A stretch of DNA of 64,000 nucleotides. It comes from a virus (Duplodnaviria; Heunggongvirae; Uroviricota; Caudoviricetes). The stretch lies in the IMG/VR virus record IMGVR_UViG_3300031772_000005; one strand, 5' to 3'. Shown in pieces: positions 16,083-60,986 of this stretch. The first letter of the stretch is position 1, and each line of letters starts with the position of its first letter. The position numbers were made by a program, and so were the translations under genes. The notes under the pieces were generated by a model that saw only the letters and a list, made by a program, of their open reading frames with translations, had not been told where the DNA came from and did not search any database.

Positions 16083-16619
16083 ATGAGTTTATCAACTAAA
16101 GATCCTGTGAATAGAAAAGAAAAAACTGAACAACTATTCAAGGAACATGAACATAAATTTAAGATTTTAGATATTAATAACCCTTTGTTTATACCAAAAT
16201 GTGCTTATAAACCATATGGTAAAACAGAATATATGCTTGGATTTTTTCCAAGTGAATTAAAAAGAGGTGAAGATATCTATACTGAATTTGTAAGTATAGA
16301 ACTTGATTCTGAAGATACTACACGTACCTTATATAAATGGAGATACAATCCCCATTATGAAACAGAATATGAGACAACAGAACCCAATGCTAAAGGAGAT
16401 GTAAGATATCTCATCCCAGTAGCTGAATTGATTAAGATTGAAATTAAAGCAGATCCACTAAATGAAGAGTCTGATAAATTTCCTGATTTTACAGAATTGA
16501 TGAACACAGATGAGGATGCTCCTCTATCTATGTTAACAATTAGAGATCTTGCAGCTATTATGTTGCAAAAACCGGTGAGTCAAAAAGAATGGTTAAATAA
16601 AATTATTAATAAATCATGA
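16083..16619 (+). CDS. hypothetical acidic protein
   Basis: 178 aa. Confidence 0.5.
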   Translation: MSLSTKDPVNRKEKTEQLFKEHEHKFKILDINNPLFIPKCAYKPYGKTEYMLGFFPSELKRGEDIYTEFVSIELDSEDTTRTLYKWRYNPHYETEYETTEPNAKGDVRYLIPVAELIKIEIKADPLNEESDKFPDFTELMNTDEDAPLSMLTIRDLAAIMLQKPVSQKEWLNKIINKS

Positions 16620-16954
16620 GTTTGATACTACCAACAGGATTAATTGCTCCAACAGAAATTAATCCTAAAAACCTTATTATATTTTCAAAACCAAAGATTG
16701 GTAAAACAAGTTTACTAGCTACATTAGACAAATGTCTTCTATTAGATTTAGAAGGTGGTTCTAATTATGTTAGTGCAATGAAAGTCCAAGCTAACTCTTT
16801 TGAAGAAATTAAAGAAATAGGTAAAGCTATTAAAGAAGCAGGGTATCCCTATAAATATGTAGCAGTTGACACTATTACAGCTTTAGAAGAGATGATTGTA
16901 CCTTATGCTGAAATACTATACTCCAAAAGCCCTAAACGTCCTTGGGGCATATAG
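16616..16954 (+). CDS. AAA_24/Sak4-like RecA-fold ATPase, exon 1 (ORF runs into the intron to an in-frame stop)
   Basis: Walker A SKPKIGKTSL, LDLEGG, YVAVDTITALEE (Walker B-like); the true exon end is probably near 16933-16942. Confidence 0.5.
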   Translation: MSLILPTGLIAPTEINPKNLIIFSKPKIGKTSLLATLDKCLLLDLEGGSNYVSAMKVQANSFEEIKEIGKAIKEAGYPYKYVAVDTITALEEMIVPYAEILYSKSPKRPWGI

Positions 16955-17817
16955 CAGTGATGTTATATGAAAATCTCTTTAATTGCTGGGAACACTTAAT
17001 TCATATGGGTAAATTTTATTATATGGGAAATTTTTACTATATTGTATAATAAATAAGATACATATGAAAAGTCAATCAGCAGCCAAGCTTTATAAATATT
17101 CAGCATTAGATAATAAACTAATTGGAAAAACTTTTAATAATATAGAAGTTTTAAGTTTATCACATGTAGAAAAAAGTAGAAGATTTTATGATATAAAATG
17201 TTTAAGATGTAATAACTTATCATATATGAGAGGTGATAGATTTACAGGAACTCAAAAATTAAATACATGTAGAAAATGCAGACAAGAAAATGCAATTCTT
17301 ACAAGTAAAAAAAGAGCGACTCCTGAATCAGTTTATTCAAGTTTATATGCTCAATGTAGAAAAGGAGCATCAGCTAGAAATATTACATTTTTAATTTCTT
17401 TAGAAGAATTTAAAAAAATTATTACAAAAGATTGTTATTATTGTGGAGTAGAACCTAGATTATCTAGTACATCTAAAAGATATAACAAAACAACAACGCA
17501 AATAAAACATAATGGTGTAGATAGATTTGACAATACTATAGGATATGTTTTAAATAATTGTGTGCCTTGTTGTAAATTTTGTAATCATATGAAAAGAGAC
17601 TATACTAAAGATGATTTTTTAAATCATATTAAGAAAATTTTTGTTTATAATGAAGGTTCAACGACTATCCCGTAAGGGAGTACATCACAAGCTAATGGTG
17701 ATGGAAATAGGAGAGTTCTCACTAGAGAACGTGATATAGTCTAATCTGTATAGAAATATGCAGCAGTTCATAAGAGAACGTATTAAGTATTGCAAACTTA
17801 ATAGAATATAAATGATG
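16934..17817 (+). mobile_element. group I intron (IA2-like) carrying an HNH homing-endonuclease ORF; boundaries approximate
   Basis: P-like AATTGCTGGGAA (16981-16992); Q-like AATCAGCAGCC (17074-17084, inside the ORF start); R-like GTTCTCACTAGAGAAC (17715-17730); S-like GATATAGTC (17733-17741); terminal hairpin TATTAAG/CTTAATA; flanking ORFs are the two halves of one ATPase. Confidence 0.55.
17064..17675 (+). CDS. HNH homing endonuclease (intron-encoded)
   Basis: NGVDRFDNTIGYVLNNCVPCCKFCNHMKRDYT HNH core plus multiple CxxC zinc knuckles. Confidence 0.75.
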   Translation: MKSQSAAKLYKYSALDNKLIGKTFNNIEVLSLSHVEKSRRFYDIKCLRCNNLSYMRGDRFTGTQKLNTCRKCRQENAILTSKKRATPESVYSSLYAQCRKGASARNITFLISLEEFKKIITKDCYYCGVEPRLSSTSKRYNKTTTQIKHNGVDRFDNTIGYVLNNCVPCCKFCNHMKRDYTKDDFLNHIKKIFVYNEGSTTIP

Positions 17818-18258
17818 GGTAAAAATTGGTTTAAAGAAGAAGATGGTGGTAAATTAAAATACGGTACTATATTAGGTTTACCTGATGGTGCGGGTTATTA
17901 TTGGACAAGACAAGCTTTTACTAAAGTTCTTGACTATATATTAACTTGGGCTCCTCATGTAATCTTTTTAGGTCACGTAAAAGATACCTTATTAGAAAAA
18001 GCTGGTGCAAGTTTTACTGCAACAGATTTAGATTTAACTGGTAAACTTAAAAGAATTACTATATCTAATTCAGATGCTATAGGTTATCTATACCGTAAAG
18101 GTAAAGCTAATTATATAAGCTTCAAAAGTGATGGTGACATAGCATGTGGTGCTAGACCTGATCACTTAAAAAACCAAGAAATTATGATTTCTGAAATTAC
18201 CCCAGAAGGTGAATATAAAACATACTGGGACAAAATATTTTTAAATATAAACAAATAA
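17812..18258 (+). CDS. AAA_24/Sak4-like ATPase, exon 2
   Basis: PHVIFLGHVKD resembles the AAA_24 C-terminal strand (nvifiaHe); in-frame stop immediately upstream, so no independent long ORF; exon probably begins at 17815 or 17818. Confidence 0.5.
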   Translation: MMGKNWFKEEDGGKLKYGTILGLPDGAGYYWTRQAFTKVLDYILTWAPHVIFLGHVKDTLLEKAGASFTATDLDLTGKLKRITISNSDAIGYLYRKGKANYISFKSDGDIACGARPDHLKNQEIMISEITPEGEYKTYWDKIFLNINK

Positions 18259-19004: not shown

Positions 19005-19982
19005 ATGCTTTCTACAATTAACTTAACAGATATAACTACTGTACCTATTGAATGGATATTTGAATATTATTTAAATCTCAAGGAAAAACTTGATGGTCAA
19101 GACATAAAGTTGGCTTCTGTTTTTAAATCAGAGAAGACTCCATCTATGTTTATTTATTTAGATTTAGAATCTTTTGAGTATAAATTTAAGGACTTTTCTT
19201 CTGGTTATCAAGGAGATAGCATATCTTTGATAAAGTATATGTTTAACATAGAATATCATGAAGCTATACTTAAGATAGAAAATGATTATGAAGCATTCTT
19301 AAAATATAATACTTCTTATGTACCTAGTATAATGCAAGTACATGATAGGTTTAAAGTAGTTGATTTTCAAATAAGACACTGGAATAATCTTGATCAAGAT
19401 TATTGGTCTAAGTATGGTATCAGTTCAAAAACATTAAGTAAATATAATGTAGCACCTTTAGAATTCTTTAACATGAGTAAGGATAATTTAGATGGTACAA
19501 GTACTAAACTAATTACACAACGTAATTATTTGTATGGCTATTTTAGAAATGATGGTAGTCTCTATAAAATTTATCTTCCTAAAACACCTGATCAGAAATT
19601 TGTGAAAGTAGCTAATTATGTACAGGGAAGTGAACAATTAATTGGTAAAGATTATTTAATTATCTTATCTTCCTTAAAAGATTTAATGGCTTTTAATAGA
19701 TTATCCTTACCTAATATTGAAGCAATTGCTCCAGATAGTGAAAATAGTATGATTGCAGAAAGTGCTCTACAGAAACTTATTGATATACATCATTATAAAA
19801 AATTAATAGTGTTATTTGATAATGATGAATCCGGAATGAAAGCAATGATAAGATATAAAACTAGATATCATCTAGATTATATTGAGTTACCTCTTGAAAA
19901 GGATTTATCAGATTCAGTTAAAAAGTATGGAGCTGAAGAAATTAGAAAAATATTATTAAAACTAATTAAAGAAATATTATGA
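19005..19982 (+). CDS. Toprim-domain protein, putative DnaG-like primase
   Basis: DxD motif LIVLFDNDESG; IILSSLKDLMAF may be the first Toprim strand; no zinc-ribbon seen. Confidence 0.4.
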   Translation: MLSTINLTDITTVPIEWIFEYYLNLKEKLDGQDIKLASVFKSEKTPSMFIYLDLESFEYKFKDFSSGYQGDSISLIKYMFNIEYHEAILKIENDYEAFLKYNTSYVPSIMQVHDRFKVVDFQIRHWNNLDQDYWSKYGISSKTLSKYNVAPLEFFNMSKDNLDGTSTKLITQRNYLYGYFRNDGSLYKIYLPKTPDQKFVKVANYVQGSEQLIGKDYLIILSSLKDLMAFNRLSLPNIEAIAPDSENSMIAESALQKLIDIHHYKKLIVLFDNDESGMKAMIRYKTRYHLDYIELPLEKDLSDSVKKYGAEEIRKILLKLIKEIL

Positions 19983-20404
19983 GTTGGATATATAAAGGTA
20001 AAGAATTTAATGATATGTGTATTCCACAAGATCATGTAGGATTTATTTACATAATGACTGCTATTATTGATGGTAAGTCAGTTACATATATTGGTAAGAA
20101 AAACTTTTTTGCTAATATTAAAAAACCTATGGGTAAAAAAGCTCTAGCAATGAGTACAGATAAACGATTAAAAAAATACATAAGAGAATTAAAACCAGCC
20201 TTTATGAATTATTATAGTAGTAATGCTGTATTAAAACAAGCTCATAAAGATGGTGTATTGATTAAAAGAGAAATACTACACATTTGTAAAACACAAACAG
20301 AATTAACTTATCAAGAAGTAAAGCATCAATTTAAATATGAGGTGCTAGAGAAAGAAGAATTCCTAAATGGAAATATATTAGGAAGATTTTATAAAATTAA
20401 ATAA
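19979..20404 (+). CDS. hypothetical basic protein
   Basis: 141 aa; ATGA coupling. Confidence 0.45.
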   Translation: MSWIYKGKEFNDMCIPQDHVGFIYIMTAIIDGKSVTYIGKKNFFANIKKPMGKKALAMSTDKRLKKYIRELKPAFMNYYSSNAVLKQAHKDGVLIKREILHICKTQTELTYQEVKHQFKYEVLEKEEFLNGNILGRFYKIK

Positions 20405-21149: not shown

Positions 21150-21377
21150 ATGAAGCATAAAGAAGAATCCTTAGCTAAAATAAGTAAAACCTTAATTTTA
21201 GCTGAACCCTTTTATGGTTTCTTATTGATAATGTTAAATAAAATATGGAGCAATAAACTTGTTCCAACTGCTGGTGTAAGTAAAAATGGTATAAATTACC
21301 AGTTAGCTATAAATCCTGAATTTTGGGAAAACCTATCTAATGAACATAGATATGGTGTACTTAAGCATGAGCTTAAT
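21150..21377 (+). CDS. putative metallopeptidase-VWA protein (DUF2201-like), exon 1
   Basis: Ends ...YGVLKHELN, then an in-frame TAG at the intron start; joins exon 2 to give HELNHIAFFH (HExxHxxxxH). Confidence 0.55.
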
Positions 21378-22485
21378 TAGGGCTCCTTATATAGTAATGT
21401 ATATGTAAAACGTCTTAAATTGCGGGAACTGCCTAAAGCTTTATCTACCAAGTATGCATAGTAATATAGTATATGGCCAGAGTAACTATCTGGGTATGGT
21501 AAAAATGATAAAGATGTCCGAATGGCAAATCCGCAGCCAAATTTCTTAGTTATATAATTTATTTTTGGTATATTGTAGTATAAATACTTACATATATGAA
21601 AACAGAAATAGAACAAAAAGTAATTGATTATTATATTACTGATAAATTATCAGGTAAAAAGATTGCAAGTTTATTACAAATAAATGTAAAAACTGTATTT
21701 GCAATTTTAAAAAGAAATAATGTAAAATCAAGAACTTTGTCTGAATCAGCAATGAAATACACTTGTCAAGATGACTTTTTTAATGTTATAAACACAGAGA
21801 AAAAAGCTTATTGGTTAGGAGTATTGTTTGCAGATGGGAATATTACAAAAAAAGCAAGTAACTCTGGACAAATTATTTTTTCATCAAAAGATAAAGAATG
21901 GGTAGACCTATTTTTATCAGATATTGGATCAAATAATTCTTCAAATTGTGAATATCAAAAAGTATTTAAAAAATATATATGGAAAGCTCAGATAACTTCT
22001 GCGCAAATGTATAATAATTTAAATAATTTAGGATGTACACCAGCTAAAACTAAAACAATTAAAATACCTATGTTAAATGATGAGTTAATTCATCATTTTA
22101 TTAGAGGTTACTTTGATGGTGATGGTACAGTTGGTGTTTATAAAAATCTAACAAGTAATGACTGGAAAATTTTAAAATCCGGTTTTTGTTCAGGTTCACA
22201 AGAATTTATTATAGACTTATTGAAAATATTACCAGTAAAAAATAAAACTATTAAACAAGTTAAGAATTGTTATATAACACAACATTCTTTACATGATAGT
22301 CTTAATTTATTTGAATATATGTATAAAAATTATACTAGATGTTTAGATAGAAAAAGACAAGTTTTCATTAATTACTTAGACACATATAAACCAAGAAAGA
22401 GGTTCAACGACTACAATAGACCATCCCAATAGGGATGAAGGTATAGTCTGATCTCATGTGAAAGCATGAGTTAACAAAATGCTTG
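21378..22485 (+). mobile_element. group I intron (IA2-like) carrying a LAGLIDADG homing-endonuclease ORF
   Basis: P element AAATTGCGGGAA (21417-21428); Q element AAATCCGCAGCC (21537-21548); S element GGTATAGTCTG (22440-22450); P9 hairpin CTCATG-tgaaag-CATGAG (22453-22470); terminal G at 22485; exon 1 ends in U; 5' boundary +/-3 nt. Confidence 0.6.
21596..22432 (+). CDS. LAGLIDADG homing endonuclease (double-motif, intron-encoded)
   Basis: Two LAGLIDADG motifs: YWLGVLFADGNI and IRGYFDGDGTV. Confidence 0.8.
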   Translation: MKTEIEQKVIDYYITDKLSGKKIASLLQINVKTVFAILKRNNVKSRTLSESAMKYTCQDDFFNVINTEKKAYWLGVLFADGNITKKASNSGQIIFSSKDKEWVDLFLSDIGSNNSSNCEYQKVFKKYIWKAQITSAQMYNNLNNLGCTPAKTKTIKIPMLNDELIHHFIRGYFDGDGTVGVYKNLTSNDWKILKSGFCSGSQEFIIDLLKILPVKNKTIKQVKNCYITQHSLHDSLNLFEYMYKNYTRCLDRKRQVFINYLDTYKPRKRFNDYNRPSQ

Positions 22486-23580
22486 CATATTGCTTTTTTT
22501 CATCTTACTCAACATCATAACTATTCTGATAGAAAGCTAGCTAACATTGCTATGGATATGGAAATAAACCAATACATAGATGATGAACACTTACCTACTA
22601 AAGAATTAAGTAAAGAAGAATATGATGCTATAGTAGATCCTATTAAAGAAGAGATTACAAAGGCAAAAGAAAAAGATGATGTAACACTTGAAGAAATCAG
22701 GGCTTTAGTAGATACTATACCTATGAGAGGTATATTTATTAAAGATTATCCAGATTTAAATCTAGATATGAAAGCAGGTAGTAGATATTATTATGATAAA
22801 CTACGAGAAGCTAAAGAAAAGAAAGAAAAAACAGGTGGTAGTGGAGATTTAAACTTTGATGCATTATGTGATGATATGGGTTCTGATGATCCTAACTTAT
22901 GGAATCATACTACATGGGAGGAGTTTGATAATTTATCTGAAGCTGAAAAGAAATTAATTGATAAGCAAGTAGATACTTTACTTAAGCATGCAGCTGATAT
23001 GACTCAAAAGAAAAGAGGTACTATACCTGGAGAATTAGAAGCTTACTTATTAAGTTTAGAACAAATTGAAAAAGCTAAATTTGATTGGAAAGGGTATATC
23101 AGAAGATTTACCGGTGTATCTACTAAAGTATACACTAAAAAGATAAGAAGAAAAGAAAATAAAAGATTTTCAGATAATCCGGGCTTAAAACTTAAAATGA
23201 AACAACATATGTTACTAGCAATAGATACATCAGGTTCTGTAAGTGATGAAGAATTAAAAGAATTTATGAATGAAATTCATCATATTTACAAAACTGGAGT
23301 AGATATTACTATAATTCAATGTGATGCAACTATACAAAGTATAAAAGAATATAAAGGTAAATTTGATGGCATCCATATAGGAGGCAGAGGAGGTACAGCA
23401 TTTGATCCAGTATTAGAATATTATAACGGACATTTAAAGAAATATACTAGTTTAGTATATTTTACAGATGGAGAATGTCATACTTATGTAAAACCTAAAT
23501 CACCTGTATTATGGGTGTTATCTGAAAGATCACATATGAATGAAGATCTTCCGGGAAAAACGATTAAACTTGAACTATAA
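22486..23580 (+). CDS. putative metallopeptidase-VWA protein, exon 2 (VWA domain)
   Basis: MIDAS motif LLAIDTSGSVSDEEL; no ATG start (the track ORF uses TTG at 22483); frame is continuous with exon 1 after intron removal. Confidence 0.55.
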   Translation, partial: HIAFFHLTQHHNYSDRKLANIAMDMEINQYIDDEHLPTKELSKEEYDAIVDPIKEEITKAKEKDDVTLEEIRALVDTIPMRGIFIKDYPDLNLDMKAGSRYYYDKLREAKEKKEKTGGSGDLNFDALCDDMGSDDPNLWNHTTWEEFDNLSEAEKKLIDKQVDTLLKHAADMTQKKRGTIPGELEAYLLSLEQIEKAKFDWKGYIRRFTGVSTKVYTKKIRRKENKRFSDNPGLKLKMKQHMLLAIDTSGSVSDEELKEFMNEIHHIYKTGVDITIIQCDATIQSIKEYKGKFDGIHIGGRGGTAFDPVLEYYNGHLKKYTSLVYFTDGECHTYVKPKSPVLWVLSERSHMNEDLPGKTIKLEL

Positions 23581-23592
23581 ATAAAAACAAAA

Positions 23593-24774
23593 ATGAGCCA
23601 GAGTAAATTAATACAATTAAACGTAGATGAATTAAAAGATTATTTAGAGCACATGGTTTCTAATAATCAATATATACAAGCACAAGGTAAAGTACCTGTA
23701 ACAATAAACATTGAAGGTGATTCAGGCCTTGGTAAAACATCAGCTATAAAACAATTTGCTGACAGCAAGAATATGGATGTCATTAGATTAAATTTAGCTG
23801 AGTTTGAAGAGTTAGGTGATTTAGTAGGTTTTCCATTAAAAGAATACTTAATTGAGAATAAAGAAGGTAAGTCAGCTTGGGTAGTTGATGCTCAACTTGA
23901 AACTGCTGTAAAATCCGGTTATAGAGTTAAAGATAAAAGAATGTCACATGCTGCTCCTGAATGGATTCAGGGTAAAACAGAAGGTGGTTTCTTAATTCTT
24001 GATGATTATACTAGAGCTGATCACAGATTTATGCAAGCAACAATGACTTTAGTTGAAGAACAGTCTTATGCATCATGGAAGTTACCTAAAAACTGGCATA
24101 TTATTCTTACTACTAATCCAGATAATGGAGATTATAACGTAACTTCATTAGACAATGCACAAAGAACAAGATTTGTAAGTGTAGAACTTAAGTTTGATGT
24201 AAATGTATGGGCAAGATGGGCTGAAGCAAATAACATTGATGGAAGATGTATTAATTTTCTATTGATGCATCCTGAATTAGTTACAGAAACTATAAATCCT
24301 AGAAGTATAACATTATTCTTTAACTCAATTAGTTCATTACCTAAGTTTGAAGACTCTTTACCATTAATACAAATGATTGGTGAAGGATCCGTTGGACCTG
24401 AATTTTCAAGTTTATTTACTATGTTTATTAATAATAAGCTTGACAAAATTATTGCTCCTCAAGATGTGATTACTAATCCAAATGAAGCATATGTGTTAGG
24501 TGCATTATCATCAGCTATTGGTAAAGATGATGACTATAGAGCAGATATTGCAAGTGTAATTGCTACAAGACTTGTAAATTATTCTTTAATTCATGCTTCA
24601 AAAGAACCCGTAAGCGCACCTATGATTCAAAGATTAGTAAAACTTACAACAGATTGTGAGGCTTTTACTAATGATTTGAAATACTATATGGTTAAAGAAA
24701 TTGTTAATGGCAATAAAGTAAAATTTGGTGGAATGATGAGAGACACTACAGTTGTAAAGATGACTCTACAATAA
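23593..24774 (+). CDS. AAA_5-type (MoxR-like) ATPase
   Basis: Walker A GDSGLGKTS; GFLILDDYTRADHRFMQATMTLVEE...WHIILTTNPDNGDY matches the AAA_5 Walker B/sensor region. Confidence 0.65.
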   Translation: MSQSKLIQLNVDELKDYLEHMVSNNQYIQAQGKVPVTINIEGDSGLGKTSAIKQFADSKNMDVIRLNLAEFEELGDLVGFPLKEYLIENKEGKSAWVVDAQLETAVKSGYRVKDKRMSHAAPEWIQGKTEGGFLILDDYTRADHRFMQATMTLVEEQSYASWKLPKNWHIILTTNPDNGDYNVTSLDNAQRTRFVSVELKFDVNVWARWAEANNIDGRCINFLLMHPELVTETINPRSITLFFNSISSLPKFEDSLPLIQMIGEGSVGPEFSSLFTMFINNKLDKIIAPQDVITNPNEAYVLGALSSAIGKDDDYRADIASVIATRLVNYSLIHASKEPVSAPMIQRLVKLTTDCEAFTNDLKYYMVKEIVNGNKVKFGGMMRDTTVVKMTLQ

Positions 24775-24829: not shown

Positions 24830-24853
24830 TAAGCCGGTGTAATAGCCGGTTTT
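24830..24853 (+). terminator. weak hairpin AAGCCGG-tgtaatag-CCGGTTT
   Basis: 7-bp stem with one G-U pair, followed by ttaatt; between the ATPase gene and the next gene. Confidence 0.3.
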
Positions 24854-54900: not shown

Positions 54901-54928
54901 AATTAAAAGGTACATCCGATTCTGCCAT
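48992..54928 (-). CDS. giant virion protein (1978 aa) with embedded PD-(D/E)XK nuclease domain
   Basis: 5.9-kb ORF; VAGEVDLLAVDRSGKVYIIDVKTG...QQLAY equals RecB-family motifs II, III and QxxxY; Gly-rich N-terminal region. Confidence 0.6.
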   Translation of the reverse strand: MAESDVPFNSLDSLGSGYGGIDAPDLNTKSLSAFEGDRLSMPSPDFPDHFTPMMPGANELTNQQHSIRNIVGNPATKPASPKHTNVDVFAAGLKQEILAHNQANQDKNEYARMYSYNAGPDGNAFYDRYKAYGQETFDKIGFHPYRDNEAIFNAGTSGWQDTKRMMTHSFWPLFTRGFVSGPKSLGKMLQGDFSADTEDAAFYSRAAAIGNSSKGGVGGFLNNTAMSFAYTAGIITEAVLEEAVAIGATAVTGGGTAPALFATTANAGKNLLRGIKGLDAATDGMRAVNATVRGLDNVSSARKFWDLSKIEKGLNNSAVKFFNPLEHLSDAALKIAKNENNLTGLARLADAGRKTVGGFYGEIRGINMALSEARLEGGMKQNDVYNKLYNSYYNEHKEAPSDEMQQNMMNQAKQAGVTTLQWNTALIFMSNKIVLDNLVGVKGRGTNFLSAKTKDILDLKGGSIARTTTKQTLKSGKKVLTPELNWRKNNLSNTLKSFAKDPIRKSVAGGISYFKKNLTEALQENAQDVIASATESYYVDSFSNDKLATYDYAMGLTKSAVKNQFTGQGFETFASGFVMGMFAAPLNGVPHLLNIGYNKIKNPKEFGEYAAIRDTYGKNLVNELSNVDMADFWNANAIGLGMQAEAETVRLTGTEKESRDAADASFNKAIIRATENDVLHHYTETLESYKDLTPEEFEEAVPSVPPGEGAKYLEKLDAVISKINRIEEKYNYYKKNFPNPINLEEAAKNKNSPDYNDAVTTHHAWNVAIGNAVFLNESFDNTMERMSSIVQDVTSNGPLKKASFEDINVLFDNKRLANEVDMIKTELEGLNSLPKTSENTSKINFKTKKLEALKNYKEALESYTKFTRNKKQILDKLKEENPGISPEELDKEYDEVVAEQKDELEISYNAYLKVIAKESNQPLFNKATDEAFEKLIDFHTLQHESQVLVENINLLHNPKDFVEHVQKNKVWMKNIYDNRREYYEALKDQEFNKKEDNDLLNGLASRGLYISLDDFQMWQQFGITPEEIFNDVNKTVIKKSHPDYDEIIAPFVFIASIRNKKSSSEINSEAVQAELDELDKMQEARLNALDKFDTRNELGGFTNMTINELNQDLLTGEYADTIATVDEEIERLTFYKDGDVLKIDNIDGIEIDLQNFRALYGISTFASGVKYTITKEPNAEEVAAIKEEFTKAKQEVIDRSIEKGTQDIESFFEKPVTINNETDIDSMPPEVYNELVAAFEKYAADNSLNIAELDDYNIAFESFVRSNYIAASIIEEYNKNQQLETATKATDETYEIPKLLIGNELVSADKLSESVLRNYLKSHEIGLKELEAKEDKTSEDDLKISQYKLFIIRLNEYLDKLSQEDLSPEQKVTINAIQQIIKDNSRIKRSSKGYELDGVTMDRVTNVINQFKEEYKHVNADEITISFNSTIQKDGLTKDSIKAFVENLRVQKGLSGFSEFTYTEVEKELKEIYAALQDNIDVSVQERTIESLEQDLLTEQGEFGDKTRVEEIEKQISELKRTVQKKSSNQDLLNTVLNLVAEKTNEASRIAGNYLDNQIRLLFDNKPNVFNEDNISQEAFDNLFNTDPDNEGYLVSIKKVIDSKGLHIMSRGYGDNGIILYDKEAKVAGEVDLLAVDRSGKVYIIDVKTGKVSKWNNFNNENAKFPQKPGYVLQQLAYSNLLFNLTGLKANISILPVEIDYNKETGKVTSANKPKSKTLLEPGNYRIPLYPTPEQVAQIDSVIPKKGEVAPEEVERETSEEGKSPAVTDQQQTNDEVTRGLDPSLVKFIREATSEQLNQFKQKFAILIAQNKIGLTDITLLQELVDTRELELAENAVVKLTENNLQIGDRLIAKEIIFTGKNNANEFASQGSEVTVVSVNNTTEKIVLKSIGAKVRQKTISFNELDKLFVLKENLMDNIETPTVKPTAQEKVLITESSDNVKDLLVNSQRKDELKTETKGKSTEDLDKDLFQDSTSDC

Positions 54929-57900
54929 TATCTTCCTGAATTGTGTTGAGTTACTTTATTAGCTACCTCTATACTATGTAATTTTGCTTTACTTAAGTTA
55001 TTACCTTGAGTAGTCATATTATCATATATAGTATAATCATTATATGTATTTGTTTCATGATCTAAAAGGCTATAGTTTGTTTCTAAGTTATAATCACCTG
55101 TACCTGTAGTATTTTTAGTAACATTAAATGAAGTTTTTTGATCCATTGATTTCCATTGGTAACCATTAGGATTAGATTCTACAATAGCCGCAATAGGATC
55201 TAAATAACTAGATACAAATAAACCATTAGACCAATTTTTAGAATCAGAAACAACGCTTATTCCATTAGTTAATATATCATTATAATCTGTTTCTGCATTA
55301 AGTAACCCTGCACCATCTTTACTTTTTATATAATTAGCTAACCATTCAGCATCAGGATAAATAATCATAGCTCCTTTATCTGCATTACCACCAGCAATAA
55401 CTTGGCTACTCATCTTAAAGTTTTTATATTTACTCTTAGTATCATTCATTGATAAGATCATATCATTAAGCATTCTTTTACCAGATTGTGTTTGCTGATA
55501 TCTAATATCTTTATCATCGCTTAAGTTGGTACCATTAAAACTAATACCTGATGTAGCAAAATCTAATTTTCTAAAATCTCTTTCAAACTCATGAAAATAA
55601 GCATTTCCTTTTGTACCAAAAGCTAATGGAGCAACATTAATTGATTGTCTTCCCGGTGTAAATAAACCACTAGCAGTCATATCACCTAAACCACTTTGTG
55701 AAAGTCCTGGTATAGCTGTAGGTGTTTTTATAGTTGAAGATTTCCAAGCTTTACCAGCTGCACTTACTAAATTTTGATAAGTATCATCAGGAAGTGCACT
55801 ATATCCAGGAGTAGCTATTATTTGTCTTGCTTGTTTTTGAAGCTCAATAACATGTGGATCACGTTGACCAAGCCTCATTGCATCTCTCATACGGTCCGCA
55901 TTACTATTTGATTTAGACTGAGGTAAATATCTTGTTTTTACATACTGTGTTAACTCTTGATTTATTGCAGCTAAACTTTTATTTAGTTTTGTAGGAGCTC
56001 CTGGTTTTCTAGCTATTCTATTAAATTCATCTTCACTTCTTAAAGTACCATCTGGTCTATATAAAAATTGAGCATCTTTAAGACCTTGGTTTGTAAGGTT
56101 TTGTTCAACTTGATTTGCACCATTAATTCTCCACTTTTTATCTGCTTCAAGATAACCAGTATAATCTTTAAAATTAGAAGATGCTTTTGTGTAACCTGGA
56201 TGACTTTGTTTTGTAATAAGACTTACACTTTTATTATGATCTATCCAATAATCTAATTTTTTAGAAATCCAAAATAAACTATTTGCACCAACAGTACCTT
56301 TTAAAAAAGCATCGGCATTACCTGATAAACCTGCTTTAAATTTAGCACGAGTCATACTTTTATCTTTTTCAGTATGTAATATTTTATCTGCTTGTGCTTC
56401 AGTCATTACACCTTCTTTTACAGCTTGATCTAATAATGCTAAAGATTCTTGCATATAAGGTACACCATAAGTATTAGTTTGTCTACTTGAAATATTTCTA
56501 CTTAATTGGGCCATGCTAACTTCTCCTGATGCAATTCCTTTATCTTCAAACTCTGTAAAAATATTATCATAAGATTCATTTTTAACAACTTGATTAAAAG
56601 TAGGATTTGGTATTTTATTACCATTTGCATCTTCAATAAATTCTTGAGAATCATAATGTGCAGCTCCTGTAGATAAATCCCATTTATCTTTAGCTCTTTT
56701 ATCTGCAGCTCTAATTTGTGCCGCAGCTACTTTTTCTCTACTTGCATTACTAGAAGCAACTTCTTGCATTCTATATGAATGATTTTGAGCACTTACCGCA
56801 AATGGATCAGCTACAATACTTTGTTTAGCATCTCTAAATGCAAATATTTGAGCTGACTCATCAAGATCTTTTTCCATTAATGATGATGCTAATGCATTAT
56901 CTACTTTCCATCTTAAGGATTTAATGTCACCATAAGGATTTTCAGATCCTGTAGATGTTGTTGCAGTACCTTGTCTATCCTGCATAGCATCAACATCTAC
57001 TTTTACTCTATTAAGTACATCATCATTTATTTGTTTACCGTATTCTAAGTTAGCTAAAGCTTTTGGTAAATCCGGATTTTTATCACCTGAATTAATTTGT
57101 TTTTGGATATCTCTAATTCTGCCATCATAAGAAACTGTATCATCTCTTAAAGATTCATAACGCATTGTTTGTTGCTGTTTTAATCTATTAAAATTAGTTT
57201 CTAAATAATTCATTTCAGCAGCATTTTTATCACCACCAAATTGAGCAGCATTAGAAGCAGCAAAGTTTTTTCTATCTACATATGCTTGTGTCTTATAAAC
57301 TTCTTGAATAGCTGGATCATTACCTAACTGAGATTCAAGTAACTTACTAAGAGGTTCCATTAACTGTTCACCATTTTTAGTAGTAACCATGTATCTACCA
57401 TCAGGACTCCACTTAACAGTTTCCATAGATAAACCAGCTTCTTTAGTTATCTGTAATGCTTTTTCTTGTACATTAACATAGTTAGTATATTTAGCATTTG
57501 ATATACCTAAAGTATCTGCAATTGCGGATTCTTTAAATTCTTCTCTTTGATAATCTAAAGCAGCTACACCATCTGCCCAATAAAGAGCACGGGTTTTTTC
57601 ATCTAATGAATTTTTAAGACCTTCTGCTCTATTTCTTTGTGCAGTATAATTTTTTGTAAAGGCCATATCTTTCATAAGATATTGATCTTCATAAAAAGGT
57701 TTAAATACTTGAGTAGCTTGAGTTACATTTTTTTCTAATGATAAATCTAGACCTGATACTTTTTTAAGAGTCACATCTATATTTTTTAAAAGTTCTTCTT
57801 TTCTTTGAATATTATCTTCATGAGTTAAATCTGCATAAAGGTATTGTCCATAAACTTGATTTAATTGTTTATAGTTACTATCATATTGTGTCTGCTTTGT

Positions 57901-57990
57901 TTGCAGTACATTATTATAGAAATTTAAATCCGGTTGAAAAGGTTGAAACTGAGGTATATAATCTGTTACGCCCTGGAGATAAGTACTCAT
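54928..57990 (-). CDS. large virion/structural protein (1020 aa)
   Basis: 3-kb ORF, start overlaps the GIY-YIG stop (TAATG); no recognisable catalytic motif. Confidence 0.55.
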   Translation of the reverse strand: MSTYLQGVTDYIPQFQPFQPDLNFYNNVLQTKQTQYDSNYKQLNQVYGQYLYADLTHEDNIQRKEELLKNIDVTLKKVSGLDLSLEKNVTQATQVFKPFYEDQYLMKDMAFTKNYTAQRNRAEGLKNSLDEKTRALYWADGVAALDYQREEFKESAIADTLGISNAKYTNYVNVQEKALQITKEAGLSMETVKWSPDGRYMVTTKNGEQLMEPLSKLLESQLGNDPAIQEVYKTQAYVDRKNFAASNAAQFGGDKNAAEMNYLETNFNRLKQQQTMRYESLRDDTVSYDGRIRDIQKQINSGDKNPDLPKALANLEYGKQINDDVLNRVKVDVDAMQDRQGTATTSTGSENPYGDIKSLRWKVDNALASSLMEKDLDESAQIFAFRDAKQSIVADPFAVSAQNHSYRMQEVASSNASREKVAAAQIRAADKRAKDKWDLSTGAAHYDSQEFIEDANGNKIPNPTFNQVVKNESYDNIFTEFEDKGIASGEVSMAQLSRNISSRQTNTYGVPYMQESLALLDQAVKEGVMTEAQADKILHTEKDKSMTRAKFKAGLSGNADAFLKGTVGANSLFWISKKLDYWIDHNKSVSLITKQSHPGYTKASSNFKDYTGYLEADKKWRINGANQVEQNLTNQGLKDAQFLYRPDGTLRSEDEFNRIARKPGAPTKLNKSLAAINQELTQYVKTRYLPQSKSNSNADRMRDAMRLGQRDPHVIELQKQARQIIATPGYSALPDDTYQNLVSAAGKAWKSSTIKTPTAIPGLSQSGLGDMTASGLFTPGRQSINVAPLAFGTKGNAYFHEFERDFRKLDFATSGISFNGTNLSDDKDIRYQQTQSGKRMLNDMILSMNDTKSKYKNFKMSSQVIAGGNADKGAMIIYPDAEWLANYIKSKDGAGLLNAETDYNDILTNGISVVSDSKNWSNGLFVSSYLDPIAAIVESNPNGYQWKSMDQKTSFNVTKNTTGTGDYNLETNYSLLDHETNTYNDYTIYDNMTTQGNNLSKAKLHSIEVANKVTQHNSGR

Positions 57991-58631
57991 TATAAGTAAA
58001 TTAAATTAGTAGTGTTTTTTCTTTTTCCTGAAATACGTCTTGATAATTCATATTTAGGAATATTTAAAGTATTTGCAGCAATTGCTAAAGATTCATATAC
58101 TTTACCTGTAATTATATTTTTTATAGATTTTCTTTTATGTGCATTAACAATATTAAAATCTACATTTTTTAATTTTTTTCTAGCTTTTGCTAAATTTAGT
58201 TTGCATTCTTCTGATGCATTGTATATTTTACCAGCTTCAATACATGCTAAAGAAGGCTTTTTACCTTTATTAGCAATTCTTAATTTTTCTTTTGTCTCTT
58301 CAGAATGAATAGAATAACTATTAGGATCTGTAGGTTTTAAATTATAACCAATAGATCTATCTAAACAATTAAGTTCATTAACCCAGTAGTGTTCTTTAGC
58401 ATGTAGATTAGTTATATCGCATTTTTCAATCATCTCAAAAATAAAGTTTTTTTCACCATATTTAGTCCATGCTTTTTGTAAATAACTGTTTTTATGTCTA
58501 TCTCTTCTTAAAGCATAGAGGTGACCATTTATTCTAGTTCTTATGTTAGAAGCACAACCAATATATATTTTACCACTAATTATATTAGTAATCTTATATA
58601 TACCTGATACTGATTGTAAATATGTTGCCAT
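57990..58631 (-). CDS. free-standing GIY-YIG homing endonuclease
   Basis: GIYKITNIISGKIYIGCASNIRTRINGH...NELN is a GIY-YIG core; basic DNA-binding C-terminal tail; located between two structural genes. Confidence 0.75.
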   Translation of the reverse strand: MATYLQSVSGIYKITNIISGKIYIGCASNIRTRINGHLYALRRDRHKNSYLQKAWTKYGEKNFIFEMIEKCDITNLHAKEHYWVNELNCLDRSIGYNLKPTDPNSYSIHSEETKEKLRIANKGKKPSLACIEAGKIYNASEECKLNLAKARKKLKNVDFNIVNAHKRKSIKNIITGKVYESLAIAANTLNIPKYELSRRISGKRKNTTNLIYL

Positions 58632-58694: not shown

Positions 58695-60986
58695 TTAATA
58701 GAACATAAATGGAAATACATCTGATCCCATTACATAACCAGAAGTATGTGCACCACCATTTTTTGATTCAGCATTTTGCATGATCTTATCCATATTGAGA
58801 GTAGATTGTGTTTGTGAACTCATTGCAGCTTTAGCAGCTGCCGTAGCTTGTTCTACACTAAAACCTTGTCCTATATACTTTTGTAATAAACTATCAAAAG
58901 TTGCTCCTGGAACTTCTCCAGTTAACTCTTTACCACCTTCAAACCATAAATTACCTGTTCTAGCATCTATATCATATTGTGGATATAATCCATTAGTTAA
59001 AGCCAAGTTAGATGCATTCTTCCAACCCGTACCAAATGCTTGTCTTACATTTTGATCAGCTGCAATTTTTGCATTATCAAATTGTTGATTAGCCATTGTA
59101 TTCTGATCATATAATCTTTGAGCCGCACCTTGATTTATACCTTGAGCTTGATTTCTAGTATTAGCTGCATTTTGAGTAAACGTATTGGCTATATCAACAT
59201 TAGCATTGTTATATTTAGATAATGTATTAGCAGCTTGTTCTGCTCCTGTACCTTGTATACTTGACATATTAGATGCAAAAGCTTGAGGTCCACTAAACTG
59301 TCCTAATTGTTGCGCCATTAAATTAGCATATTCACTTTGTTGAGCTAAGTCTCTTGTTGGATCTAAATATGTTGGATCTGGAACTTCTGGTTCAAATCTT
59401 GGAGCCCAAGGCATATACTTTTTAATTCTTGATTTATCTTTAAGTGCACCATAATAATTTAACTTATCAGGAGTCATCCATTCAGCTTGACGTAACTCAG
59501 GAGCTTCTTCAAAATCAGGAGTATATTCATCAGCTCTTTTAATAGCTCCTGCTTTTATTTCTTCAGGTGTTAATTTAATACCATCAGCAGCTGCTTCTTT
59601 CATAACATATTTATTATACATTTCCGGATTTGTTTCATCATGCCAATACTTATCACCATTCTGATCAATAGATCCTTCTTTTTTCATTTGAGCTTCATAG
59701 TCAGCTTTATTTAATTTTACTGTTTGTGTATCTAAAGCACGGTACCACCATTCATCATCTTTATAACCAGCACTAATATCAGCAGCTGAAACCTTACCTG
59801 CTTTTAAAGCATCTACAATATCTTGATTTGTTTTTACTGTAATACCTTTTTTCTTTAATGTAGCTTTTACTGCATTACTAGGTTGGTGACTTACATTTTG
59901 TATGTAGTCAGCTACTAATTCAGGATTACTTTCAAGAATTTTTTGTTGCATTTCTCCTGCAGCTTTTTTAATATCAGCTTCAGTAAGAGGTTTACCTTTT
60001 CCTCCAATAGGTTCTAAACCATATTTATCTCTATAGAAGTTTAATCTAACTACTGACTCTGCATTAGTGTAAGCTTCTTTCATACCATAAGGGGTTCCTC
60101 CTGATTGTAATTTAGGCATACTACCTCCTCTAGCATATTCTTGAGGTACTTTCTCATAATCTGTATATTCAGGATATACGTATCCCGGATTAAATGGAGC
60201 TGATTCTGAATTCATTTCATAACCATATTGACCCATTGGCATAGCAATAGGTTCACCATTAGGCATTTGTTGTGGAGCTTCCATCATCTCTTCTTGAGGA
60301 TTTTGTTCCATACCTTGTTCCATTCCCTCTTCTTGAGGAGATTGTTGTTGAGCTAATTCTGGAATTAAATCTTCATCTGCTATATTATTAGCTTCCATAT
60401 ATGGCCTAGCTACTTCAGGTATACCTTGAGGAAAACCTTTTTTAGCTTCTTGTGCTACAGCAAGGGCTCCTAATTTCATAGTATAATTACGGATCATAAT
60501 CTCTGCAGTCTTTCTTTCTAAAGTACTTGAGTTAGGATCTTGTAATAATTTTCTATATTTACTTAAGTCATATTGTTTAGCTAATGTAGCTGGTGTATAT
60601 GATTTAGTATCTTTTACACTTTTACCAAATTGAGCTAATATTTTAGGATCCTTAAGCATCATTGATTTAGTATCACTAAAGATAAAAGTATCATCTGGAA
60701 GATTTAATGGTACACCTCCTGAAGAATGTCTAGGCCCTTTAATAGTAAGGTGTTCTGCCATACCATCACCATTAATGTCACCATAAACAGTTTCTCCTCC
60801 TTCAGCTTCTAAATTAGCTTCATCTCTAGGTACAGCTGAAATAGTATTAGCTACACTGATATTTTCAGGCCCACTACTCATATCTGCTCCACCCCAACTA
60901 AGAGATTGGTTAGGTGCTATTTGATTACCATTAATTTTACCTCCTGTAGCTTTACCAGGTAGTTTGGTTATTTTTACTCTATACAT
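58695..60986 (-). CDS. structural protein (763 aa), Q/N-rich C-terminal half
   Basis: 2.3-kb ORF; MEQGMEQ repeat; Ca-binding-like loop DINGDGMAEH near the N-terminus. Confidence 0.55.
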   Translation of the reverse strand: MYRVKITKLPGKATGGKINGNQIAPNQSLSWGGADMSSGPENISVANTISAVPRDEANLEAEGGETVYGDINGDGMAEHLTIKGPRHSSGGVPLNLPDDTFIFSDTKSMMLKDPKILAQFGKSVKDTKSYTPATLAKQYDLSKYRKLLQDPNSSTLERKTAEIMIRNYTMKLGALAVAQEAKKGFPQGIPEVARPYMEANNIADEDLIPELAQQQSPQEEGMEQGMEQNPQEEMMEAPQQMPNGEPIAMPMGQYGYEMNSESAPFNPGYVYPEYTDYEKVPQEYARGGSMPKLQSGGTPYGMKEAYTNAESVVRLNFYRDKYGLEPIGGKGKPLTEADIKKAAGEMQQKILESNPELVADYIQNVSHQPSNAVKATLKKKGITVKTNQDIVDALKAGKVSAADISAGYKDDEWWYRALDTQTVKLNKADYEAQMKKEGSIDQNGDKYWHDETNPEMYNKYVMKEAAADGIKLTPEEIKAGAIKRADEYTPDFEEAPELRQAEWMTPDKLNYYGALKDKSRIKKYMPWAPRFEPEVPDPTYLDPTRDLAQQSEYANLMAQQLGQFSGPQAFASNMSSIQGTGAEQAANTLSKYNNANVDIANTFTQNAANTRNQAQGINQGAAQRLYDQNTMANQQFDNAKIAADQNVRQAFGTGWKNASNLALTNGLYPQYDIDARTGNLWFEGGKELTGEVPGATFDSLLQKYIGQGFSVEQATAAAKAAMSSQTQSTLNMDKIMQNAESKNGGAHTSGYVMGSDVFPFMFY

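Follow-up and report, generated by a model that had tools for sequence, protein, structure and literature searches.

A zincin-VWA gene with a predicted group I intron in its HExxH motif and its AAA+ ATPase partner in an uncultured tailed phage

A two-gene operon lies at positions 21150-24774, on the plus strand, of a 64,000-nucleotide (nt) stretch of DNA (hereafter the window; IMG/VR record IMGVR_UViG_3300031772_000005) from a tailed, uncultured phage of low GC content (~29%). Its first gene encodes a putative zincin-type metallopeptidase fused to a VWA domain (the zincin-VWA protein) and is split by an insert of 1108 nt that has the features of a group I intron; its second gene encodes a predicted MoxR/dynein-related AAA+ ATPase. 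The operon probably specifies an ATP-dependent protease or remodelling machine in two pieces, acting early in infection and corresponding to the gp25/gp24 proteins of coliphage N4.

The split zincin-VWA gene and its intron

The plus strand of this region contains four open reading frames (ORFs), of 76, 278, 365 and 393 amino acids (aa). The 76-aa ORF (21150-21380) has the C-terminus ...LKHELN*, its stop codon lying 7 nt inside the insert, and the 365-aa ORF, for which a TTG at 22483 is listed as the start, has the N-terminus (M)HIAFFHL and ends at 23580. These two ORFs cover the two exons of a single 440-aa protein: exon 1 (21150-21373, plus strand) supplies codons 1-74 and 2 nt of the codon for Leu75, and exon 2 (22482-23580, plus strand) supplies the rest. 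Joining the exons gives a 440-aa ORF reading LKHELLHIAFFHL. A syntenic, intronless relative (L003, ~92% nt identity) is contiguous at 6224|6225, the equivalent of 21373|22482, with zero bases missing or added: window positions 21150-21373 correspond to 6001-6224 of L003 (92.9% match), and 22482-24774 to 6225-8516. The match to PF13203 is divided at the junction (family positions 3-68 in exon 1 and 69-236 in exon 2), as is the match to PHROG 1314 (9-79 and 80-390). A preliminary description of this DNA had called the VWA gene intron-split, and the divided matches, together with the contiguous gene of L003, bear this out. The best full-length homologues (434-441 aa, 63-88% identity, 99-100% coverage) have no interruption, and their sequence at the junction is LKHELLHIAF. 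A database search with the joined protein returned thousands of homologues, of metagenomic origin, and hundreds of uninterrupted homologues share LKHELLHIAF with the spliced product.

The same description had proposed a DUF2201-like metallopeptidase-VWA protein, and in Pfam searches both of the corresponding families, PF13203 (DUF2201_N, 'putative metallopeptidase') and PF09967 (VWA-like DUF2201), were found above their gathering scores, at the N-terminus and the C-terminus of the joined product, respectively. PF13203 covers residues 5-285 (2.1e-17, 64.0 bits, cut-off 23.2) and PF09967 residues 319-437 (1.5e-17, 64.3 bits, cut-off 26.4), and these scores exceed those of the separate exons (1e-17 for PF09967 in exon 2). 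The joined N-terminal domain matches peptidase families only (PF13203, PF18894, SprT-like). In NCBIfam, the zincin-VWA protein gave only a SprT match far below threshold (19.6 bits against 113), and sequence and profile searches of PDB gave nothing at E<=1. The predicted N-terminal HExxH module is present, interrupted by the intron: exon 1 ends ...K-H-E-L(CT| and exon 2 starts |C)-L-H-I-A, so that H73 and E74 close the first exon, H77 lies in the second and joining gives HELLH. In the protein alignment (A1), H73, E74 and H77 are each at least 90% conserved; the residues of the metal ion-dependent adhesion site (MIDAS) in the VWA domain (D323-x-S325-x-S327, T380 and D404) are each invariant, as is the motif AMDMEINQ, 25 residues past HExxH, and all of these are carried by exon 2. 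The roles given to H73, E74, H77 and the MIDAS residues follow general literature on zincins and VWA domains, and E102 of AMDMEINQ is presumably the third zinc ligand, by analogy with gluzincins. Conservation of the catalytic HExxH as well as of the MIDAS residues makes it probable that the peptidase and MIDAS activities are both needed. PHROG 1314, the family of this protein, bears the label 'HNH endonuclease', which has been copied into many GenBank phage records (H14, H15, H19 and H22, among others). The zincin-VWA protein has no HNH domain, and the label is therefore a spreading annotation error.

The insert (21374-22481, plus strand), missing from L003, is supported as a group I intron by its boundaries, its predicted fold and its relatives. 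Its boundaries were first set by group I rules, which require that a U precede the 5' splice site and pair with a G of P1 and that the last intron base be a G. These rules give 21373|21374 and 22481|22482, and sliding of the junction is precluded by the bases on either side of it. The insertion point is inside the codon for Leu75 (CT|C) of H73-E74-L-L-H77. P1 pairs GAGCU (21369-21373) with GGCUC (21381-21385), with a U21373.G21381 pair at the 5' splice site. The predicted exon-ligation junction is ...CATGAGCT|CTTGCAT..., and an intronless site of the L003 type reads GGTGTACTTAAGCATGAGCT^CTTACATATTGC around the insertion point. The intron would splice itself out of the mRNA, so that the full-length protein is made.

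The 5' part of the predicted ribozyme core (21374-21547, plus strand), drawn from the minimum free energy (MFE) fold, a helix drawing and covariation, comprises the 3' strand of P1, or internal guide sequence (21381-21385), P2 (21388-21403), the 5' strand of P3 (21412-21415), P4 (21421-21426/21530-21535), P5 with a P5a-d extension (21430-21527) and the 5' strands of P6 (21536-21538) and P6a (21542-21547). The 3' part (22393-22481, plus strand), based on the Rfam alignment, the MFE fold and covariation, comprises P6a' (22393-22398), P6' (22401-22403), P7 (22409-22413/22444-22448), P3' (22418-22421), P8 (22422-22437), P9 (22453-22470) and the omega-G (22481). The canonical P, Q, R and S elements are present in the intron, and the Rfam alignment places the R element (GUUCAACGACUA) and the S element (AAGGUAUAGUC) in the 3' core. 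An unconstrained MFE fold with the ORF loop deleted recovered P1, P2, P4, P5, P6/P6a, P7, P8 and P9, and P3 (21412-21415/22418-22421) would form the usual pseudoknot with P7. An ORF-less copy of 300 nt, found at the same site in another relative (L005), has a core 98% identical to that of the window and matches RF00028 at 83.5 bits (cut-off 50). Covariation was assessed in an alignment of four sequences (the window, this L005 intron, the intron of L007 and a second, homologous intron of L005). In the drawn structure, 98% of cells pair and double-sided changes occur in 22 of 76 pairs; the structure was drawn from the window sequence, and the compensatory counts are less affected by this than the pairing itself. 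When partners were slid by 1-3 columns only 0-3 such pairs were seen, and 0 of 500 shuffles reached 22. Sequences in Staphylococcus, Bacillus and PhiPA3 phages share 70-74% identity with the 5' core.

The 278-aa ORF (21596-22432, plus strand) encodes a predicted LAGLIDADG homing endonuclease, matching PF14528 (LAGLIDADG_3; 2.5e-7, 31.3 bits, cut-off 22.5) and PHROG 4645 ('endonuclease', 1.7e-48). The protein has a helix-turn-helix-like N-terminal region and two motifs, LGVLFADGN and IRGYFDGDG. Its gene lies in the P6a loop, the final ~40 nt overlapping P6a', P6', P7, P3' and part of P8. Two relatives, L007 and L008, have the same intron at the same site; their endonuclease ORFs are 91% identical and their cores 94-95% identical to those of the window, but their exons are only 66-78% identical. 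The exons of L005, which has the ORF-less form, are ~82-86% identical in DNA to those of the window, and the intron is absent from L003 and from a further relative, L010. Because the intron is patchy in its distribution, confined to a single site and far better conserved than its exons, it seems to have spread horizontally; a pattern of this kind is classically left by homing in which the endonuclease gene is now and then lost. The endonuclease would cut intronless alleles during co-infection, and the intron would then be copied in. The homing intron expected in this gene is thus backed by the intronless L003 allele, the ORF-less copy that passes Rfam, covariation, the LAGLIDADG ORF and an intron identity well above that of the exons. 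The introns of T4 td, nrdB and sunY, of SPO1-like DNA polymerase genes and of Staphylococcus Twort/K-like lysin genes likewise sit in conserved catalytic codons, carry an ORF in a peripheral loop and occur sporadically. GIY-YIG or HNH endonucleases are typical of the T4 and SPO1 introns, whereas the endonuclease here is of the LAGLIDADG type. To our knowledge, neither a gp25-like zincin-VWA host gene nor the HE-L|L-H site is among the phage intron sites described so far.

A second ORF-less group I intron is present in the zincin-VWA gene of L005 (3729-4003; RF00028, 87.7 bits), between D100 and M101 of AMD|MEINQ, the region of the presumed third zinc ligand. This intron is homologous to the one in the HExxH site, its P1 guide is adapted to its own exon, and it is the source of most of the covariation. 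In the same contig (5040-6799), the ATPase gene stops after ...NIDGRC, at about residue 219 of the window protein (nt ~24250), and is followed by a 314-aa GIY-YIG ORF, a group I-like P4/P5 element (AATTGCTGGGAGGTCCTAAAGC) and the contig end. This interruption is probably a third intron, in which case both genes of the pair are targets of homing in the clade.

The ATPase and the known counterparts of the pair

The ATPase gene (23593-24774, plus strand; 393 aa) follows the zincin-VWA gene after a spacer of 12 nt. PHROG and PDB matches, Foldseek and alignment support its predicted product as an N4 gp24-like AAA+ ATPase related to MoxR, dynein and Midasin. The protein matches PHROG 1297 ('ATPase', 1e-33), and the AAA domains of Midasin were its only significant matches in PDB (5.6e-8 for a single-sequence query, 2.5e-10 for a profile of 15 sequences). 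An AlphaFold model (predicted local distance difference test score, pLDDT, 68) gave generic AAA+ matches in Foldseek, with NorQ and NorQ-NorD complexes among the best (E 3.5e-6, TM score ~0.45 on the target). Among viral models, Foldseek matched the 'Gp24-like protein' of RaK2 (4e-9), the 'ATPase dynein-related AAA' of Aeromonas and Vibrio phages, a crAss-like virus protein (34% identity) and 'COG0714 MoxR-like ATPases'. N4-like Salmonella and Erwinia phage ATPases were found by tblastn at ~26-31% identity (~31% over 200 aa for Salmonella phage SP154), and cyanophage 'MoxR-like ATPase' and PHROG 249 'porphyrin biosynthesis' (CobS-like) proteins are weak relatives. The motifs identified are a Walker A (G42-x-x-G-x-GKT-S50), a Walker B (LILD137-D138), sensor 1 (N175), an arginine finger (R193) and sensor 2 (P236-R237), and the C-terminal half is helical. 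The Walker A, sensor 1, arginine finger and PR sensor-2 are shared with PEV2 gp33 and AD45-P1 gp052 (COG0714). A terminator-like hairpin with a T-rich tail (24831-24852, plus strand; found by consensus scan only), between the ATPase stop codon and the next gene, may be a weak mark of the end of the transcription unit; three such sites were present in the region against 1.1 expected.

The architecture of the pair is already known from homologues in N4, PEV2 and AD45-P1 and from published descriptions. N4 gp24 (AAA) and gp25 (vWFA) were described as conserved and their function was listed as unknown (Zhao et al., 2009; PMC2784036), and a MoxR AAA+ protein paired with a vWA protein bearing an N-terminal metallopeptidase was described in group 2.2 jumbo phages (Iyer et al., 2021, Viruses 13:63; PMC7824862). 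On sequence grounds, the pair in the window is best described as a divergent member of this N4 gp25/gp24 type. Coliphage N4 gp24/gp25 and their orthologues in Schitoviridae such as PEV2 form the same set of AAA_5-type ATPase and metallopeptidase-VWA protein, in an early or replication region. In PEV2, gp33 ('N4 gp24-like, AAA_5') and gp35 ('N4 gp25-like, predicted metallopeptidase') are annotated as 'transcribed in early infection' and are encoded just upstream of the helicase and DNA polymerase. The sequences are highly divergent (25.5% identity over 92% of the length for the zincin-VWA protein, 1e-15), the gene order is reversed, a 172-aa ORF separates the genes in PEV2 and none does so here, the Walker B is DE in PEV2 and DD here, and the window gene has an intron. 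In the Alteromonas phage AD45-P1, gp051 and gp052 are adjacent, COG3864 preceding COG0714, which is the order of the window. Jumbo-phage homologues among the matches include the 'gp24-like/gp25-like' proteins of RaK2 and proteins of phage G and of Escherichia coli phages of 350 kb. Group 2.2 jumbo phages have the same domain architecture and pairing, but the phage studied here, at about 118-128 kb, is not jumbo and its pair has a replication context rather than a morphogenesis context.

The two genes are also adjacent in L003, L004, L008 and L010, as in AD45-P1; in PEV2 a single gene lies between them. The window, L003 and L010 share an order that runs from primase through zincin-VWA, ATPase, a 394-aa protein and a PD-(D/E)XK nuclease to PolA, with a SegE-like nuclease gene and two small ORFs between the primase and the pair in the window. 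The giant minus-strand genes lie on the other strand and on the other side from the pair, which has no structural gene as a neighbour. The clade is abundant and uncultured, with contigs of ~115-129 kb. The zincin-VWA protein is at most 33% identical to any of 50,697 phage-collection records, and no close cultured phage was found by PolA, which is at most 34% identical to its homologues (in Vibrio phages). The sole match in 185,579 species genomes was L010 (JBIPNK010000148.1; 117,852 bp), which is intronless, syntenic and 64% identical in aa sequence. This contig was binned in a freshwater Chitinophagaceae metagenome-assembled genome and is most likely the phage genome itself; the binning is a weak hint of a host in Bacteroidota. 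No defence-system model of PADLOC fitted either protein of the pair. A literature search found 'DUF2201' only in unrelated papers, and no paper joining crAss-like phages with DUF2201 or N4-like phages with von Willebrand and ATPase.

Proposed mode of action and alternatives

By analogy with NorQ-NorD, CbbQ-CbbO, RavA-ViaA and Midasin, a hexamer of the ATPase would dock the VWA domain, the MIDAS site of which would hold a target protein by one of its acidic residues. Remodelling driven by ATP would then hand the client to the fused zincin domain, making the pair FtsH-like, in two pieces. These four systems likewise combine an AAA+ motor of the dynein/MoxR clade with a MIDAS-containing VWA adaptor and serve as a mechanistic template; in NorQD, the VWA domain of NorD reportedly inserts a finger into the pore of NorQ, and a linker is twisted by the motor (PMC13036017). 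MoxR-vWA systems have been reviewed as a group (PMC7159879). The cellular partners lack the zincin peptidase domain of the window protein and act on metalloenzymes or pre-ribosomes, and the sequence likeness is confined to the ATPase core. In the least secure step of the model, the pair would act early on a host protein or a replication-associated protein and not on the virion. An early role appears more likely than virion maturation because of the position of the pair in the replication module and the early transcription annotated for its PEV2 counterparts. A more specific suggestion, put forward as speculation and with a low probability of being correct, is that the pair is an FtsH-like protease in the replication module of unrelated lineages, stripping a DNA-bound or replication-blocking protein or degrading a host defence or takeover target. 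Such a reading would cover the N4-like phages, the jumbo phages and this uncultured clade, and the machine may be likened to a SprT/Wss1-plus-Cdc48-style remover.

Several observations weigh against the reading as an intron-split, early, two-piece protease or remodeller. We know of no substrate for any member of the family, N4 gp25 included. The AlphaFold2 model of the spliced zincin-VWA protein, built from a 10-sequence alignment, had a mean pLDDT of 44 and was not used for a fold search; as this model is unusable, the zincin fold and the third zinc ligand are proposed from motifs. The ATPase had been labelled AAA_5 in the preliminary description. The AAA+ part of this label holds, by PHROG 1297, Midasin and N4 gp24-like homology, but the Pfam matches are below their cut-offs (AAA_5, 17.1 bits against 22; AAA_3, 18.8 against 27) and no match was found in NCBIfam, so that the more precise name depends on homology to Midasin and the N4 gp24-like proteins. 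The Walker B of the ATPase is DD, with D138 invariant in 15 clade members, whereas PEV2 and AD45-P1 have DE; a DD Walker B could mean slow hydrolysis, or a role more like a switch than a motor. An Rfam scan of the whole window gave nothing at the gathering threshold and nothing at E<=0.05, and a search confined to 21200-22700, with laxer filters, gave partial RF00028 matches of 34.2 bits (E 1.3e-6, 22315-22470) and 20 bits (21421-21579), below the cut-off of 50, the model being split by the 0.84-kb ORF. For this architecture, the one function that has been proposed in print is in virion assembly (Iyer et al., 2021; PMC7824862).

Other interpretations of the insert have very little in their favour. 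LAGLIDADG endonucleases are also known from inteins, but an intein was rejected because the insert is out of frame with the exons and contains many stops, and a group II intron because there is no reverse transcriptase and Rfam gives group I only; the reading frames and the Rfam result for L005 already refute both, and together they can be dismissed with near certainty. It is also very improbable, though a little less so, that the insert fails to splice, being either a homing endonuclease gene cassette that splits the gene into two polypeptides or part of a decaying pseudogene. Exon 1 does reach a stop 7 nt into the insert, the window copy falls below the Rfam cut-off, and phage genes split by free-standing endonuclease genes exist. 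The ribozyme core is, however, complete, covarying and 98% identical to the copy that passes Rfam, the boundaries fit the U and G rules and P1 pairs to the exon. No credible start codon belongs to exon 2 itself, the TTG given as its start being 1 nt inside the exon; HE|xxH distributed over two chains would destroy the zinc site, and every invariant residue is kept in the exons.

For the function of the pair, the published alternative is that of a chaperone or co-chaperone of virion assembly with a maturation protease, the zincin trimming structural proteins while the MoxR-VWA part builds the capsid or tail. This was proposed by Iyer et al. for group 2.2 jumbo phages, the pairs of which share this architecture, and these authors cite the requirement for a MoxR-VWA system when Acidianus two-tailed virus develops its tails (PMC7824862). 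The pair is, however, located between the primase and the PD-(D/E)XK nuclease and PolA genes in the window, L003 and L010, with no adjacent structural gene, and the PEV2 homologues are annotated as early and adjoin replication genes; this early, replication-linked context in another lineage argues against the proposal, and virion assembly is considered unlikely here. A metal-related chaperone similar to NorQD, CobST, BchID and CbbQO, which would insert a metal cofactor or activate an enzyme, with HExxH holding or delivering the metal, seems less likely again. Metal insertion or enzyme reactivation is the task of most MoxR-VWA pairs characterised so far (PMC13036017, PMC9976466), NorQ ranks with the best structural matches, and the cyanophage and CobS-like proteins are weak relatives of the ATPase, but the complete catalytic HExxH motif is present, with its glutamate conserved, the N-terminal domain has affinities with peptidases only, and no gene for a client metalloenzyme is linked to the pair. 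The preferred interpretation remains that of an early protease or remodeller of the N4 gp25/gp24 type, and it is considered likely.

Other elements of the window and significance

The window contains another ATPase/VWA pair, in which the ATPase gene (3042-4112; PF20030 bpMoxR 4e-14, AAA_5 3.6e-9) precedes the VWA gene (4125-5462; VWA_CoxE 0.0078, below the cut-off, with a DxSxS motif), so that the order VWA then ATPase at 21150-24774 is reversed relative to this first pair, as previously described. An SPFH/Band_7 protein (6242-7183; 5.3e-18) is encoded ~0.8 kb downstream of the first pair. The two ATPases compared by BLASTP gave an E value of 0.43, and the two VWA proteins compared by hhalign aligned over 25 columns around DxSxS (the MIDAS strand) with a probability of 3%. 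A recent duplication was rejected, in view of this lack of detectable pairwise similarity, and the two pairs appear to belong to different branches of the MoxR-VWA systems.

A second insertion relative to the intronless L003 is found at 16933-17814, where it splits an AAA_24 (Sak4/RecA-like) gene into halves at 16616-16954 (PF13479 positions 2-85) and 17812-18258 (positions 92-173). It has a group I-like P element (AATTGCTGGGAAC), an S/P9 element (GATATAGTCTAATCTGTATAGAAATATGCAG) and an ORF of 203 aa (17064-17675) with no Pfam match, which makes it a probable further group I intron, encoding a novel or degenerate endonuclease. On the minus strand, a GIY-YIG/NUMOD3 homing endonuclease gene (57990-58631; PHROG 314 1.2e-32, PF01541 5.3e-8) is wedged between the ORFs 54928-57990 and 58695-60986, which could be halves of one gene. 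The SegE-like GIY-YIG nuclease gene upstream of the pair (19979-20404) is free-standing and overlaps the end of the primase gene; it is kept in L003, L004, L005, L007 and L010 (75% aa identity in L010) and, being conserved across relatives, looks fixed and not recently mobile. The minus strand at 31715-54928 is occupied by three consecutive giant ORFs (2020, 3734 and 1978 aa). A PHROG search with the 2020- and 1978-aa ORFs gave no match at 1e-5, and the size of these ORFs recalls the virion RNA polymerases of N4-like and crAss-like phages.

Gene callers report the split gene as a 76-aa fragment and a 342-aa 'DUF2201' protein, an annotation error that should be corrected. The locus provides a clean natural set of alleles, with intron-plus, ORF-less and intron-minus forms. 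N4-like phages, many jumbo phages and this abundant uncultured clade all carry the gp24/gp25-type pair as a conserved module. Mobile introns have landed on the zinc-binding codons, as is typical of sequences that are unable to drift, and, if the pair does act as an FtsH-like protease, its indispensability would explain why three introns home on zinc-ligand motifs and the ATPase in one clade.

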